DNA of 30,178 nucleotides from a virus. The translations under genes were made by a program, and so were the position numbers. The stretch lies in the UHGV virus genome UHGV-0251015, one strand, 5' to 3'. The number at the start of each line of letters is the position of its first letter. Position 1 is the first letter of the stretch. Of the stretch, positions 892 to 6,839 are shown in pieces. The notes under the pieces were generated by a model. It was not told the origin of the DNA and did no database searches. It saw only the letters and a program-made list of their open reading frames with translations.

Positions 892-1110
892 CTAGTTATC
901 AAAAAGTCCGTACGTTTCTTCTTCAGGAGTAAGGGGAAGAATCTCAATTCTATCTATAGATACCTTTTCAATGTACCCATGAGGTCTACTTAAAATTAAA
1001 GCTCTCTCATGCCACAGAACTCCAAGAATGTGATACCTTCCAGCATCGCCTTTTACCCTGGCTCTTCCTTTGATTCTTGGCGGCATAATGCCATATTTTT
1101 TCTTTGCCAT
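892..1110 (-). CDS. Hypothetical small basic protein (72 aa)
   Basis: ORF track; start shares its T with the stop of the upstream antirepressor gene (TAATG-type junction); no family recognised. Confidence 0.4.
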   Translation of the reverse strand: MAKKKYGIMPPRIKGRARVKGDAGRYHILGVLWHERALILSRPHGYIEKVSIDRIEILPLTPEEETYGLFDN

Positions 1111-1838
1111 TATGCAACATTACTCCCATGAACCAGGTGTTGTAGTGCTTTAACGCCTTCAGAATTGTAGCGGAATGCTTCCACCTGTTTGCTGGAATGC
1201 GCAGATTTATCCAGGAAGAACTTCCCGTACTGCTCAGTTTTGAGGTTGTTTGCGTTAGCAATGCGACCAATCTTGTTTGCCGTTACTCCAAGCTGCTCTG
1301 CGACCTCCCCTGCTGAGTAGTAATGCTCTTCTATTGCCGGAAGAGGTATTGCATTAAAACCAACGAGCGGGTTGATTATACTTGCTGCCGCTGTCTGCTT
1401 TGCCTCCGGCGCAAGATTTGGCATCAGATCGAACAGATTGGTAACAGCTTCAACCGTCATTTTCAATGTTCGCGCTTGACGATACTCAACAAGTCCACTC
1501 GACGATTTACCGCTTTTAATGTGCGCTTCTTGCATCCTTTCAAGTTGGTCTACAAGTGAGCGGCGAACAGCTTTAGATTCACGAGCAGCCACTCGAAGGG
1601 CTTGCTTAATTGACATAACAACTTTTTCAGAAGTTGTCTTGTTTGATTTTTGAACTACGAAAATTTCGTAGTGCTCACCTTCAAGTTCATCCTTAATGCG
1701 TGCAATAAAGTCGTTATTTCGAACTTCTTTTTCCCCGCACTGTCTACGAGCATGATTGACCATCTCTAACAGGTACTGGCTATCAATGGTTTTATCCGTG
1801 ACAACGGATCCGATGTTTGCTACATTCTTAAAAGTCAT
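1110..1838 (-). CDS. Antirepressor-like protein with KilA-C-type C-terminal region
   Basis: ORF track 1110..1922; I prefer the internal start MTFKN at 1838 because AAGGA sits 7 nt upstream, but 1922 (stop/start overlap with upstream gene) is possible. C-terminal YSAGEVAEQLGVTANKIGRIANANNLK resembles phage antirepressor C-terminal domains (recall). Confidence 0.5.
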   Translation of the reverse strand: MTFKNVANIGSVVTDKTIDSQYLLEMVNHARRQCGEKEVRNNDFIARIKDELEGEHYEIFVVQKSNKTTSEKVVMSIKQALRVAARESKAVRRSLVDQLERMQEAHIKSGKSSSGLVEYRQARTLKMTVEAVTNLFDLMPNLAPEAKQTAAASIINPLVGFNAIPLPAIEEHYYSAGEVAEQLGVTANKIGRIANANNLKTEQYGKFFLDKSAHSSKQVEAFRYNSEGVKALQHLVHGSNVA

Positions 1839-1921
1839 TAGGCATTCCTTATGTGGTAGTAAGGGTGTGACATAGGCCGCCAGCAGCACACTGGCGGTTT
1901 TTTTCACCGCCAGATGCGTCA

Positions 1922-2845
1922 TTAATACAGATGAACAGAAGGCGGCAATTCTTTATTCTTAAGCCTTATCCATGCGGAAAGATTTGTTGGTCCGTCTGGC
2001 TCATTGATATCAACATCTCGTGTGTGGTTGATTAAAACGTCTCTCGCCGTTCCGATAACATACGAGAACTCATGACCGTAGTCGTAGCATCTGCCGGAAT
2101 AGTTCGATTGAATTTGTTTTAGCGCCGGATACAGTTCGCGGAATAATGCCTGTGAGCGGTTGGCATAATCCCATAGCCATACAAGGCTGTTTGCTTCTTT
2201 TGCAGAAAGCTCGTTGACTTTCCTCTCTTGTTTGCCGATGAACTCTCCTTCAAGCGGAACGCGAGCAGCAAGTGACAGTGCTTCGGTAAACTGCTCCTCA
2301 CTGATTTCTTTGTACGAACATCCAAAATGGGATTTCAGTGACGACCACATGGTGATCATCGCCTTAGCCTGTTTTTCTTTTGGCAGAGACTGACCGCGAC
2401 TCATGACGAGTTGTTTAATGGCTTCCTGCTGTTCAGTGGTAATTTTACCCGGCAACGCCTTTTTAGCTTTGCGTGGATTAACCACATGGCCTTTAGTCCA
2501 GTATTCGTAGAGCACATCGTCACACTCTTCCTGATACTGGATTACCTTGTCGCGGATTTCAGGGCGGACTTTGTTTGGTTGAATACTTGAAAGCCAAGCC
2601 GCAAATTTACGAAAGGCAAGACATGTCATTAACTGTTTACCGCCAGCAGAAGGTATTTCGATTTCCGAAATACCTTTGGCAAACCTTTGTTTTAACTTAA
2701 CAAATTGAGCAGCCCAAACCAGCCCCATGCCTTCAACAACAGGCCTCATAGGAACATAAGGCTCATTGTTAATTCCAACCAAAAACAGATTTGTTCCGTG
2801 GAATGGTACATTGATAGTAGATACCGCTGTTGCTATACTTTTCAT
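1922..2845 (-). CDS. Antirepressor (Ant-like), immI-type module
   Basis: 307-aa ORF immediately downstream of an Arc-like gene; N-terminus resembles P22-type antirepressor N-terminal domain by recall; P22-like gene order. Confidence 0.55.
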   Translation of the reverse strand: MKSIATAVSTINVPFHGTNLFLVGINNEPYVPMRPVVEGMGLVWAAQFVKLKQRFAKGISEIEIPSAGGKQLMTCLAFRKFAAWLSSIQPNKVRPEIRDKVIQYQEECDDVLYEYWTKGHVVNPRKAKKALPGKITTEQQEAIKQLVMSRGQSLPKEKQAKAMITMWSSLKSHFGCSYKEISEEQFTEALSLAARVPLEGEFIGKQERKVNELSAKEANSLVWLWDYANRSQALFRELYPALKQIQSNYSGRCYDYGHEFSYVIGTARDVLINHTRDVDINEPDGPTNLSAWIRLKNKELPPSVHLY

Positions 2846-2846
2846 G

Positions 2847-2916
2847 TCAATATTTCCCGATCAGATTTGTTGATATAGAAGCCTCGCCAGTTCCCGCTGT
2901 CGGGGCTTCGTTATTT
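2847..2916 (+). ncRNA. Candidate sar-like antisense RNA spanning the arc-ant intergenic region
   Basis: Plus-strand TTGATA-17nt-TATACT promoter at about 2812-2840, ending at the ant start codon; plus-strand hairpin GAAGCCTCG/CGGGGCTTC then GTTATTTTT at about 2877-2916. Coordinates +/-2. Confidence 0.4.
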
Positions 2917-3078
2917 TTAGAGAGCATTCCGCATTTTCTCCCGGTACTTCAACCACCAAGCAAGTCCCTGAACCAACACTGAGTTTTCTGACATCCCCTC
3001 TTCCTTGGCGATGCGTTTCACCTCCTCCTTAAAACGGTACGGATACCGAAGAGTTGTCTTCACTTCATTCTTTTCCAT
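2917..3078 (-). CDS. arc: Arc-like ribbon-helix-helix repressor (53 aa)
   Basis: Below ORF-track size cutoff; my translation MEKNEVKTTLRYPYRFKEEVKRIAKEEGMSENSVLVQGLAWWLKYREKMRNAL; AAGGAG 6 nt upstream of ATG; matches the Arc beta-strand/helix pattern by recall. Confidence 0.6.
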   Translation of the reverse strand: MEKNEVKTTLRYPYRFKEEVKRIAKEEGMSENSVLVQGLAWWLKYREKMRNAL

Positions 3079-3100
3079 TGATCACTCCTTTTTACGTAAT

Positions 3101-3161
3101 GGCATTATGCCTTGAAAGCAATATGCCATCATTGAATATAAATAGCAATATGCCATCATTG
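3101..3161. promoter_or_regulatory. Divergent promoter/operator region between arc and mnt: palindrome GGCATTATGCC plus two exact 17-bp direct repeats
   Basis: GGCATTATGCC at 3101-3111; GCAATATGCCATCATTG at 3118-3134 and 3145-3161; a candidate plus-strand promoter TTGAAA-18nt-ATATAA (3112-3141) overlaps the first repeat. Confidence 0.45.
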
Positions 3162-3180
3162 TTTTTTTTGAGGTGATGTT

Positions 3181-3501
3181 ATGGCTGAAAAACAGGTTAA
3201 AGATTACGAAAAGTTTGTTGTGCGTTTCCCTGACGGGATGAGGGACGCGATTGCGGAGAGAGCCAAACGAAACGGGCGCTCTATGAACTCAGAGATTGTG
3301 CAGATACTGGAAGATGCCTTGAATGCAGAAAATACTCTTGGGGAAATAGCAGACAAAATCAACAGCGTCTCGGTTCCGCTAAATGTTGATGCGCTAGTTC
3401 AACTTCAAGCCCAAGTGATCGCCATGCAAAAAGAAATACAGGAAAAATTCAGAGAGCAGAACGAAAAGTTGAGAGAACTGCTAAACAAAAAACCCACCTG
3501 A
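3181..3501 (+). CDS. mnt: Mnt-like ribbon-helix-helix repressor with C-terminal coiled coil
   Basis: FPDGMRDAIAERAKRNGRSMNSEIVQILEDAL is an Arc/Mnt-type RHH signature (recall); GAGGTG RBS; transcribed divergently from arc. Confidence 0.65.
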   Translation: MAEKQVKDYEKFVVRFPDGMRDAIAERAKRNGRSMNSEIVQILEDALNAENTLGEIADKINSVSVPLNVDALVQLQAQVIAMQKEIQEKFREQNEKLRELLNKKPT

Positions 3502-3516
3502 CGGTGGGTTTTCATT
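3491..3516. terminator. Bidirectional intrinsic terminator between convergent mnt-like and lipoprotein genes
   Basis: Perfect hairpin AACCCACC-TGAC-GGTGGGTT (3491-3510) flanked by A-run upstream and T-rich downstream, so it can terminate both strands. Confidence 0.6.
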
Positions 3517-3535
3517 ACATATCAATTAATACCTA

Positions 3536-4198
3536 TTATCTTCTGATCGCTTTACGCCAATCCCCGGATAATCTAGATATATCCCAACACGACTGAACAA
3601 CTTCAGTAAAATACTCTCTATCCATTGGCGCGATTCCTGGCCAATCTTTCATTCGATTTACTAACGCATCTTTTGGTATGCCCTTCTTTTGATTCAAGGA
3701 GGTTTGTTCGCAAATCGCCCTTACCGCAGCATCATATTCAGCCTGAGCATAATGATTCACACTAAGAAGCACAGTGTATGCTGTTGAAAGTGAATTCATG
3801 GAAGATGAGAGTTCTTTCTTCCTCCGACACTCTTTATCAGCAAGGCATTTCTCTTCAGCTAGTTTTTTTTCCGCTCTCTTCTTGTTATTGAAGGCGTTAA
3901 TCCCAGAATCATAAGCGTTAGCCCATACATTGTAATAACACTCTCCATCCCAGCCGCATTGCGTGGTATCTGGAGCGACAAGAATCATCCCTGTTTTTTT
4001 TAGATAATCATTTTTAAGCCTATTAACAGTCCATGACTCTCCGCTTTTTGCTACATACTCTTTATCACCGAATTCGCTTTGCTGTTGCTGAGTGGTTGGT
4101 GGGGTTATCGAACACCCGTACAATAAAGAAGCAGAAAGAATCAAGAGAAAGTGTGATTTTATTTTTCTTACACATTCACCACGATTAATTAATGCCAT
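3536..4198 (-). CDS. Putative lipoprotein (220 aa), accessory/moron gene of unknown function
   Basis: Basic N-terminus, hydrophobic stretch and LLYGC lipobox-like motif; Cys-rich; visibly AT-rich; GGAG RBS; terminator directly downstream. No family recognised. Confidence 0.6.
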   Translation of the reverse strand: MALINRGECVRKIKSHFLLILSASLLYGCSITPPTTQQQQSEFGDKEYVAKSGESWTVNRLKNDYLKKTGMILVAPDTTQCGWDGECYYNVWANAYDSGINAFNNKKRAEKKLAEEKCLADKECRRKKELSSSMNSLSTAYTVLLSVNHYAQAEYDAAVRAICEQTSLNQKKGIPKDALVNRMKDWPGIAPMDREYFTEVVQSCWDISRLSGDWRKAIRR

Positions 4199-4396
4199 AC
4201 GGCGACTCCTGTCAATTTAGCATGATATACAACGGATTACCTTTGAGTTGTTCATCATATTAACGAACACAATAACTTCAGGTAAACACCTAATCCTCCC
4301 TCATCATCATGCATGAAGAAAAAACACGTATTTATCATACATGTAGCATTAATGACTGTTACCTCCAATTGGTTGGCAAAAATCATCACTGACAGG

Positions 4397-4645
4397 CTAT
4401 GATTTGAATAAGTGCTCATGCCGTGCTGATAGCTCTACTAGCAACTTCATCGCTTCTACCGCGTCTGCCGAGGTTGATTTAGGTGACGCAGCAATGGACC
4501 TGAGTGTGCTCTCTAAACTACACAGGGATAGAGAATATGCCAAATTTAGCTTTATCACGGCGGCTAAGTCTGTTTCATCATGGTTTACGAGTTTGTCTGC
4601 TTCTTCTGGGGTATACCCACTCGCAACCAATCGTGCGTGCATCAT
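4397..4645 (-). CDS. Hypothetical small protein (82 aa)
   Basis: ORF track; helical charged composition; preferred over the overlapping Ser-rich plus-strand ORF 4404..4655. Confidence 0.35.
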   Translation of the reverse strand: MMHARLVASGYTPEEADKLVNHDETDLAAVIKLNLAYSLSLCSLESTLRSIAASPKSTSADAVEAMKLLVELSARHEHLFKS

Positions 4646-4729
4646 CTCTTTGTAAGAGTGTTCAATTGCTTTTATGATAATAACCTATTGGTAATAATTC
4701 CAGGATTAAAAAACTCTTGATAGTAGTAA

Positions 4730-4969
4730 TTAATTTCCATCAAGAGCAGCAAGCAGCGAAGTGCGCAACTTTTCTTGAGTCATTTTCAACTCTCCGCTCT
4801 TTGCTTGCCTGCGAAGATCATCGACCACCATTTTGGTGAATTCTGTAGGGGTAATCTCACTCTCGATAGAGACCTCTCTCCCAAGAAGCAATGATATCCC
4901 ACCCAAAATCAGGCTAAAGGCATTACCAATATTTTTTAACGATGGAGTGTAAACGATGGAAAGTTTCAT
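4730..4969 (-). CDS. Hypothetical small protein (79 aa) with one hydrophobic segment
   Basis: ORF track; hydrophobic AFSLILGGISLLLG then charged C-terminus; first gene after the tape measure. Confidence 0.4.
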   Translation of the reverse strand: MKLSIVYTPSLKNIGNAFSLILGGISLLLGREVSIESEITPTEFTKMVVDDLRRQAKSGELKMTQEKLRTSLLAALDGN

Positions 4970-5024
4970 TTTTACCGTCCGACTTCAGTTAACGGATACA
5001 AGCACAGGAAACGTTACAAGGTGA

Positions 5025-6839
5025 CTAAGGCATTGCACTAGAAAATGCCGCGTTTGTTGACACCCGGCTAACTTGCTGATTGACACTTCTGGTAAGAGCA
5101 TCAACTGTTGTCGGGTTACTGTTAACAACAACCGTGCCAATAGTTGTACTGCTGCTACGACTGTTGTCAATTTTTGATGTTGTCTGGCTTGGTGTTGAAG
5201 CGATGCGTTGCTGCTGCTGATAGTAAGCCAGCGTCTCGTTTTCTTTTGCATTAAGAGCGGCGCGAATCTTTGGCACATATTCTCGCGTCTCTTTCGGTAA
5301 GGTGTTCCAGTATTTGGATGATGGTGAATCAAACCCGGTACTGGATATGTATTTTAACTTTTTGTCTACATTGCCCATCCCCCAGTTGTAAGCCATCAGC
5401 GCATGGTTAACATTGCCTTTATAGTGCTTTAGCAAATCCCTCATGAACCTTTCAGCAGCAGCGCGAGATTTTACCTCATCAAGACGCTCATCAATCCCAT
5501 CACCGACCTTTAACCCGTACGCTATGGCAGTATCCTTCATGAACTGATACGGACCAACAGCACCTTTCGGGCTGTAAAGTTTTTTACCACCACTCGATTC
5601 CACCTCACGAATGGCATCAAGAAGAGAATCCATGCTTACAGGCTTTACTCCGTCAGGGAGAGGGATATCTGGCTGAATGTTATTGCCATAAATCTCATCT
5701 CCCCTACGCCCAAAATCGGTGTCAAACCCCATGCTGCGCATGGTATCTCCAAGTTCACGCTTAGAGTAATCAAACGATCCTTTAGCTGCACCCTCAATGT
5801 TTTCCCTGTCATTGTAGAGGTACAAACCATATGCTATTAACCCAGCCAACCATGGAGGAAGGGCACCGCCTGTAAGTTTGCTTCCTACATATGCTGCTGC
5901 CAATAGCTTCAGAGCCTCTTCCGCGCCACCAACTGCCTTTGTGAATTGCTTCGTCATATTCCCGGCGTCATTGAAAAAGCCAATGATGTCGCCATGATGT
6001 TTCTCAATCCAGGAACCAAAAGCCTTCATCCCGTCAATAACGTCTGGAGCGAATGCCATGGCTAAATTTTGCTTTAATCGGGAAAACTCTGAATCAAGTT
6101 GACCAAGAGTGGCGGCAACCTTCTCCTGCTCTTTTACCTGCTGTGCGCTAATACGGGATTTCTTTGTTTCTGAATCGACAAGCTGCTTAAGTTCCCCTGA
6201 TTTTATTTTAGCGGCATCTGTCGGATCGAACCCTGCGGCCGCCATCACCTGCATCAGGTTTTCTTGAGAATGAGTCTTGCCATAGCGAGAAAACTCAGCA
6301 AGAGCCTTGTTTGGGTCACCGAGCTTATTGATATCTAATCCGGTACGAGCGCCAAGAACCAGCAAATTTTGGGCAGCGCCAGTAAGCCCCCCCATAACAG
6401 TTGGATCGGCAATATTTGCCAAAGCCATTCTGGCATTCCCAGAAGATGAAATGAACGAGTCACCGTTAAGACCAGCCTGGCGAAATCCCCGCTGAACACC
6501 AAACATCTTATTAACATCAGAACCGAAAAACTTGGCCTGTTGACTGGCTCTCACGATTTCGTTGGCAGTAGATGTAAAAAGTTGCTTGATTCCATACAAC
6601 CCGGCGCCAATTCCCAAAAATCCAGCGGCTGCGGTTGTCACGTTGCGGAAAGCTGAAACAGCGGTTTTACCGAACCTCTCCGTTTCCTGCCGCTGTTTTT
6701 CAAGTTCCTTTAGCCTTTCCTTCTCAGCCCTGGAAAGATCTTTGTTTAATTTACTAACTTCATCTTTTACTTTCCGTTTTCCATTCAGGAATTCATCGGC
6801 CTTAATTGTGACCTTGTAGGCCAACTCATTGATAATCAT
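5025..6839 (-). CDS. Tail tape-measure-like protein with lytic transglycosylase (SLT) domain
   Basis: N-terminal coiled coil, central Gly-rich hydrophobic segments, C-terminal LDAIREVESSGG...GAVGPYQF motif typical of SLT domains (recall); position after chaperone genes. Confidence 0.7.
   Translation of the reverse strand: MIINELAYKVTIKADEFLNGKRKVKDEVSKLNKDLSRAEKERLKELEKQRQETERFGKTAVSAFRNVTTAAAGFLGIGAGLYGIKQLFTSTANEIVRASQQAKFFGSDVNKMFGVQRGFRQAGLNGDSFISSSGNARMALANIADPTVMGGLTGAAQNLLVLGARTGLDINKLGDPNKALAEFSRYGKTHSQENLMQVMAAAGFDPTDAAKIKSGELKQLVDSETKKSRISAQQVKEQEKVAATLGQLDSEFSRLKQNLAMAFAPDVIDGMKAFGSWIEKHHGDIIGFFNDAGNMTKQFTKAVGGAEEALKLLAAAYVGSKLTGGALPPWLAGLIAYGLYLYNDRENIEGAAKGSFDYSKRELGDTMRSMGFDTDFGRRGDEIYGNNIQPDIPLPDGVKPVSMDSLLDAIREVESSGGKKLYSPKGAVGPYQFMKDTAIAYGLKVGDGIDERLDEVKSRAAAERFMRDLLKHYKGNVNHALMAYNWGMGNVDKKLKYISSTGFDSPSSKYWNTLPKETREYVPKIRAALNAKENETLAYYQQQQRIASTPSQTTSKIDNSRSSSTTIGTVVVNSNPTTVDALTRSVNQQVSRVSTNAAFSSAMP

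Follow-up and report, generated by a model that had tools for sequence, protein, structure and literature searches.

The virus genome UHGV-0251015, a stretch of 30,178 nucleotides (nt) that we refer to at its full length as the window, carries an element on its plus strand, between an arc-like gene and the antirepressor gene ant, that is very probably a diverged homologue of the sar gene of phage P22, embedded in an immI-type module (mnt / arc - sar - ant) of an E. coli prophage. The first-pass annotation of this DNA had proposed a small antisense RNA here on the ground that its size and placement mirror those of P22 sar, and the likeness turned out to extend beyond layout, to an alignment with P22 itself and a full-length match to the sar model of Rfam (RF00262). 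RNAs of this kind are already known, both from P22 and as predictions in P22-like phages such as epsilon34 (PMC2629481); what is new is a diverged copy, in an unusual host phage, that had gone unannotated, and the understanding of how such RNAs work is unchanged by it.

The P22 facts used here as a reference are drawn from reviews and from GenBank annotation. The P22 sar RNA is 68-69 nt long (PMC3134472, PMC12197685), pairs over the ant ribosome-binding site and blocks translation of Ant (PMC7968456, PMC12197685), and small-RNA sequencing of P22 infection yielded sar reads (PMC13397905). On this model, a sigma-70 extended -10 promoter lying on the opposite strand within the first 12 codons of ant would start transcription at G2846, producing an RNA of 68-73 nt that spans the whole arc-ant spacer and ends at an intrinsic terminator whose U-run lies over the arc stop codon. 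The RNA would fold into two hairpins, the first displaying an anti-Shine-Dalgarno sequence, UUUCCC, in its loop and the second serving to terminate, and it would pair with the arc-ant mRNA across the ant ribosome-binding site, blocking initiation of Ant translation. Less Ant would mean less inactivation of the main repressor of the prophage, so that the element is predicted to add a post-transcriptional brake on antirepressor synthesis and hence on induction and anti-immunity. P22 Psar, the sar promoter, is stimulated by convergent transcription from Pant, and a convergent arrangement of Psar-like and ant transcription is found in the window too. The features that make up this picture are collected in Table 1.

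Table 1 Positions of the sar-like element, its predicted promoter and the surrounding genes in the window
Feature	Position	Strand	Basis or remark
Predicted sar-like transcript, 68-73 nt	2846-2918	+	P22 annotation, alignment, RF00262 match, fold
Predicted stem-loop I, GUCAAUA/UGUUGAU pairing	2846-2874	+	Fold; per-sequence stem analysis
Predicted stem-loop II (terminator hairpin), loop UCCC	2878-2909	+	Fold; covariation at inner pairs
U-rich tail GUUAUUUUU (GTTATTTTT)	2910-2918	+	Last two bases within arc stop codon (2917-2919)
Predicted Psar -35 hexamer, TTGATA	2811-2816	+	5/6 to consensus; within ant codons 10-12 of opposite strand
Predicted extended -10, TG-c-TATACT	2831-2839	+	Overlaps ant codons 3-5 (opposite strand)
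ant, antirepressor, cis target	1922-2845	-	P22_AR_N and P22_AR_C Pfam domains; P22 Ant homology
arc-like 53-residue ribbon-helix-helix gene	2917-3078	-	PHROG 582; upstream of ant, same operon
mnt-like 106-residue repressor gene	3181-3501	+	Pfam Arc domain; divergent from arc-ant
arc-mnt control region, candidate operators	3079-3180		Palindrome and direct repeats; promoters weakly predicted

Homology, promoter and fold of the sar-like element

The RefSeq record of P22 annotates a sar misc_RNA, together with its promoter and its terminator, at the place equivalent to the element, and an alignment of the window with P22 and CUS-3 brings out shared blocks at TGCTATACT (the extended -10), at CATGT and over the hairpin GAAGCC..G.C.GTT.CCGC.GT.GGGGCTTC. 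When positions 2700-3250 were compared with Rfam, the best match was RF00262 sar, at 2847-2913 on the plus strand. This match to the sar covariance model is significant and full-length (model positions 1-68 of 68; 32.2 bits; expectation value, E, of 1.3e-4 in a 551-nt search and 4.3e-5 in a 181-nt search), and both stems of the model are satisfied bar one C/U pair. Since 32.2 bits lies below the Rfam gathering score of 43 bits, which is an operational cutoff and not a biological property, default Rfam annotation does not report the element; the match emerged with an E-value threshold applied to a short stretch. RF00262 scores run from 97.8 bits for P22 and 84.6 bits for CUS-3, through 48.6, 46.8 and 40.5 bits for the IMG/VR loci L033, L067 and L007, to 32.1 bits for Edwardsiella phage GF-2 and 29.5 bits for Stx phage 2851, and the gathering score is also missed by GF-2, Stx phage 2851 and L007, all of which have the same layout. 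Diverged sar copies thus escape current Rfam-based annotation, which makes a case for widening the RF00262 seed.

Annotation of individual genomes bears on the same point. E. coli KCJ3K291 carries a near-identical sar-arc-mnt block, with one linker base changed and a different ant allele, and in its RefSeq record no RNA is annotated in the stretch from ant to the gene for the 53-residue protein. The Z1323CEC isolates of E. coli likewise carry such a block, at 99% identity. In the records of Stx phage 2851 (NC_049943, L001, 3979-3989) and GF-2 (NC_026611, L124, 3091-3101), the annotated ant coding sequence is extended upstream so that it overlaps arc, and this over-extension conceals a spacer with a sar-like promoter, body and hairpin; the true ant start in both records is probably the ATG that adjoins the sar 5' end.

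Position and orientation of the element match those of P22 sar, as do its 5' end at the ant AUG, its 3' end over the arc stop codon, the extended -10 (TGcTATACT in both), the two hairpins with an anti-Shine-Dalgarno in loop I, the outer stem of hairpin II (GAAGCC/GGCUUC in both) and the neighbours mnt, arc and ant. Unlike these, the 32-nt body has diverged (GUCAAUAUUUCCC... in the window, GUUGGUUUUUCUCC... in P22), and the inner stem of hairpin II has, in the window, one A-U to U-A swap and a C/U mismatch. The window has a better -35 than P22 (TTGATA, 5/6, against GTGTTA, 3/6) and a longer U-run, whereas its terminator stem is the weaker of the two. CUS-3 is alike in its ant N-terminus, which is of the type found in the window, and the window therefore has the same -35 and -10 as CUS-3, TTGATA being common to the CUS-3-type N-terminus; CUS-3 differs in having no arc and a P22-type hairpin, whereas the window has a different body, hairpin and arc type.

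The near-consensus promoter that had been noticed antisense to ant, with TTGATA and TATACT separated by 17 nt, is present and matches consensus at 10 of 12 positions. Its -10 hexamer lies at 2834-2839 and is preceded by a TG at 2831-2832, which makes it an extended -10, and at the sequence level it amounts to a predicted Psar-like promoter within the first ant codons on the opposite strand. The accompanying statement that the promoter ends at the ant start codon was close, but the two do not abut exactly, since the -10 stops 3 nt short of the complement of that codon (CAT, 2843-2845). That promoter-like hexamers and a nearby hairpin should coincide here by chance has a negligible probability in our judgement: at the scanner's loose threshold the region 1500-4500 does hold 4 promoter-like matches against 6.3 expected, and so is not enriched, yet the match at issue is the only one of at least 10/12 on the plus strand in a scan of the whole 30-kb window (there are 2 on both strands together), its position is homologous to that of P22 Psar, and it goes together with a full-length covariance-model match and the family-wide conservation described below; this evidence of homology effectively refutes coincidence.

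The predicted +1, G2846, adjoins the ant start codon of the opposite strand, with the 5' end being set by homology to P22, and the predicted 3' end falls inside the U-run. The putative transcript is therefore antisense to the arc-ant intercistronic region, from the ant start codon to the 3' end of arc, a geometry that equals the P22 annotation. Structure prediction, which had been put forward as a check, returned two hairpins for 2846-2920 with a total of -26.4 kcal/mol, compared with -12.8 +/- 2.7 kcal/mol for 200 shuffled sequences (z -5.0; 0/200 as good), and this minimum free energy fold has the shape expected of sar, a 5' stem-loop followed by a terminator hairpin (14 bp in the family), the Rfam consensus structure being satisfied but for one non-canonical pair. 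The anti-Shine-Dalgarno UUUCCC (2853-2858) is located in the loop of stem-loop I; the Shine-Dalgarno sequence of ant is GGGAA at 2854-2858, its 3' end 8 nt upstream of the AUG, and the entire 71-nt ant leader, this sequence included, is complementary to the sar-like RNA.

The hairpin and T-run seen earlier at the 3' end of arc were likewise borne out. Stem-loop II, GAAGCCTCGCCAGTTCCCGCTGTCGGGGCTTC, comprises 13 pairs and one C/U mismatch (-18.8 kcal/mol), and is followed by GTTATTTTT, the U-run at 2914-2918 running into the arc stop codon (2917-2919). A terminator scanner marks the inner stem only of this hairpin as terminator-like, and a separate strict terminator scan missed the hairpin because of the C/U mismatch. 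The transcript had also been described as devoid of coding capacity, and, as read from the sequence, the only ORF-like stretch (ORF, open reading frame) in its 73 nt is three codons long. A second copy or trans target of the body or the hairpin was sought in the window and not found; each occurs once, with 0 expected by chance.

The element was also compared with other antisense RNAs of temperate phages. The c4 RNA of P1 and P7 is alike in being a small RNA that blocks antirepressor translation around the ribosome-binding site, but is unlike in being listed as trans-acting (PMC12197685). Identity with c4 was rejected, as there was no c4 match in 2700-3250 even at E up to 10. The c4 RNA is processed from a same-strand transcript upstream of its target. 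Lambda OOP, antisense to cII, resembles the element as a short cis-antisense RNA of a temperate phage that has its own promoter and intrinsic terminator and tunes the choice between lysis and lysogeny, but its sequence is unrelated to that of the window element; OOP overlaps the 3' end of its target and acts through RNase III-dependent decay, not through occlusion of a ribosome-binding site. A weak match to ctRNA_pGA1 (RF00236) also overlaps the element (2850-2923, plus strand; 23.4 bits, E 0.007-0.02). We dismissed a relationship in this case, the match most likely reflecting the generic shape of two-hairpin antisense RNAs.

Comparative signatures across the family

To compare the element with its relatives we used 230 hairpin loci, obtained from two pattern scans of IMG/VR and from phage records, in 197 of which the hairpin is preceded, at a distance of 29-34 nt, by the start of a long antisense ORF. 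In a control in which the hairpin pattern was run against genomes of all bacteria, 3 of 121 matches passed the stricter filter, two of these three being from Enterobacterales (Pectobacterium odoriferum and Enterobacter adelaidei). This loose-pattern genome scan returned mostly chance matches in unrelated phyla, and it is used as a negative control rather than as a picture of host range.

On the promoter side, TAnnnT is kept 3 nt before the start codon (or, in a few cases, abutting it) in 61 distinct promoter regions, with an upstream TG in most, and these 61 regions encode many different Ant N-termini. Where isoleucine codons lie over the first bases of the -10, ATA is used in 33/33 cases, and valine and leucine codons at the same place are GTA and TTA in 25/27; serine at ant codon 3 is encoded by AGT or AGC in 40/40 cases and never by TCN. 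This bias among synonymous codons argues that conservation of the peptide is not the whole explanation for the kept -10.

Stem I was lost when 28 variants were aligned with MAFFT and passed to RNAalifold, which recovered hairpin II, because differing linker lengths shift the register; we therefore analysed this stem sequence by sequence. Clustering of the 63 bodies gave 17 groups below 80% similarity, and stem I forms from nucleotide 1 in 16 of these 17 clusters, with sequences that differ from one to the next (for example GUCAAUA/UGUUGAU, GUUGGU/ACUGAC, GUCGU/ACGAU and GCUAG/CUGGC). Its z-scores are negative in 17/17 clusters, G-U pairs are used, and its mean energy over the 17 clusters is -7.3 kcal/mol on the sar strand versus -2.7 kcal/mol on the complementary mRNA strand.

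For hairpin II the fair test of covariation is confined to twelve inner-stem positions (columns 7-12 and 21-26), three loop positions being unconstrained and unpaired. Among 37 context-validated variants, 95.8% of cells are paired compared with 89.6% in shuffles (0/500 reached the observed value), and five pairs are changed on both sides, one position being U-A in 18, G-C in 16 and A-U in 2. Slid controls gave 33-53% paired. At least 5 T occur within the 9 nt after the hairpin in 43 of 63 distinct downstream contexts.

The strand on which the structure acts is where an alternative reading has to be weighed, namely that the functional structure belongs to the minus strand, where it would serve the arc-ant mRNA as a leader element or in processing or attenuation, and that the promoter match is incidental. 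The hairpin is transcribed within the arc-ant mRNA anyway and still forms there, if more weakly; however, the mRNA-strand leader of the window, complementary to the sar strand, folds like its shuffles (z -0.56), pairs that are G-U on the sar strand turn into A-C mismatches in the mRNA, the hairpin is not followed by a T-run in that direction and the scan gave no minus-strand terminator there, and the promoter is conserved across the family. We regard this alternative as very unlikely. Taken together, the codon bias, stems and folding asymmetry indicate that selection acts on a plus-strand RNA and on its promoter, rather than on the mRNA leader or on the DNA sequence alone.

Several points weigh against reading the element as a sar homologue. 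A gathering-mode Rfam search of the whole window gave no match. Hairpin II contains the C/U mismatch and is weaker than its P22 counterpart (-18.8 versus -21.9 kcal/mol). The pattern used to collect the loci fixes the outer stem and the GTT...GC core, so that the invariance of the outer stem is by construction; many of the loci are closely related, and the shuffle counts given above are not to be read as probabilities. The conservation seen at the -10 is in part inseparable from that of the N-terminal peptide of Ant. Finally, we infer the production of the RNA and the repression of ant in this copy from the experiments on P22 and from the comparative signatures.

Mosaic structure at the arc-ant junction

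The E. coli prophage that makes up the window encodes a DUF3383 protein, which we take to be the tail sheath, and an SLT 'lytic tail protein', rather than the podovirus tail of P22, and its Q and lysis genes are lambdoid. Its immI module has the lytic tail protein on one side and the baseplate genes on the other, an arrangement shared with Edwardsiella phage GF-2, whereas in P22 the module is located between the genes for the ejection proteins and that for the tailspike. The sar circuit of P22 is hence not restricted to P22-like podoviruses; its RNA gene travels with ant and is found also in this sheath-tailed E. coli prophage, in GF-2 and in Stx-converting phages.

In prophages of this type, the interval from the SLT lytic tail protein to the baseplate genes (3536-5025 in the window, and in related E. 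coli loci such as L230) is a hot spot for cargo, and in related E. coli prophages it holds P63C-domain, LexA-family or Panacea-domain genes, or different ant alleles.

The sar element also marks a recombination joint, since matches of E. coli genomes to the arc-mnt block start at window position 2830, inside the promoter; since, among 196 loci, 21 ant-side, 17 body, 12 hairpin and 31 downstream types occur in 75 combinations; since the GenBank record of CUS-3 labels the equivalent stretch 'bsq2; boundary sequence'; and since the ant region is known as a mobile, highly mosaic and fluid moron (PMC2629481). The combination in the window, a CUS-3-type promoter side with another body, hairpin and arc type, occurs in 2 of the 196 loci. 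The exact start of the arc-mnt matches at 2830, the boundary label and the 75 combinations would also suit a reading in which the conserved block is a joint for ant/arc recombination and nothing more, the promoter and hairpin being relics without RNA function. Such a reading leaves unexplained the strand-asymmetric folding, the compensatory changes in both stems and the exclusive NTA and AGY codons that keep the -10, and the P22 homologue is a proven RNA; we consider it improbable. A role as a joint is compatible with RNA function.

A broader possibility, which we put forward tentatively and on balance doubt, is that sar is a two-part device in many enterobacterial temperate phages, in which hairpin and -10/ATG joints allow reassortment and a variable body sets the specificity of repression in trans. 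If this were true, the outer hairpin, which hardly varies, and the -10/ATG block would provide short homology joints that reassort ant, sar body and arc alleles, even across virion types, and the variable 30-nt body (at least 17 types) would define RNA-based 'anti-antirepressor' immunity classes among co-resident or superinfecting phages. The window would then represent one rare class and combination.

Neighbouring genes and control region

The gene order mnt / arc - ant is that of immI in P22. The antirepressor, which has the domains P22_AR_N and P22_AR_C, lies behind a small ribbon-helix-helix gene and faces a divergent ribbon-helix-helix gene, as in an immI module of the P22 type. The ant product of 307 residues is 56% identical to P22 Ant over its full length, and its ATG is the first start codon after an in-frame stop. 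The 53-residue protein matches PHROG 582 'Arc-like repressor' (E 1.6e-10) and has no Pfam match at E 0.001 or better; it is only weakly similar to its P22 counterpart, Arc (38% over 29 residues). The 106-residue protein, which has an Arc/Mnt ribbon-helix-helix domain, is 47% identical to the N-terminal part of P22 Mnt, and is longer than that protein (106 versus 83 residues).

The arc-mnt intergenic region contains a perfect 11-bp palindrome, GGCATTATGCC, at 3100-3110, and an 18-nt direct repeat, AGCAATATGCCATCATTG, in two exact copies (3117-3134 and 3144-3161). Palindrome and repeats share an ATGCC half-site and are likely Arc/Mnt operators. Edwardsiella phage GF-2 has analogous repeats, with GGCCATAATGCCACCA present twice.

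Directly after ant lies a second antirepressor-like gene (1110-1922, minus strand; PHROG 1726, E 2e-99), whose first ATG overlaps the ant stop codon (TAATG). The PHROG match begins at residue 29, which is an ATG with a good AAGGAA Shine-Dalgarno sequence. On the other side of the module, beside mnt and roughly at the place of P22 sieA, a 220-residue ORF (3536-4198, minus strand) has a possible lipoprotein signal, LLYGC, and a sole match to PHROG 26209 (unknown function); it might have a role in exclusion or be a moron gene.

At the left end of the window, bases 1-138 appear to be part of a sequence with about 25,000 occurrences among about 4,100 E. coli genomes, plasmids included, and are assigned to this repeated sequence because long single-copy matches all begin at 139-144; they are probably the end of an insertion sequence. 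Positions 139-900 match a phage 'hypothetical protein' gene of related prophages, which is seemingly interrupted at the left end of the window.

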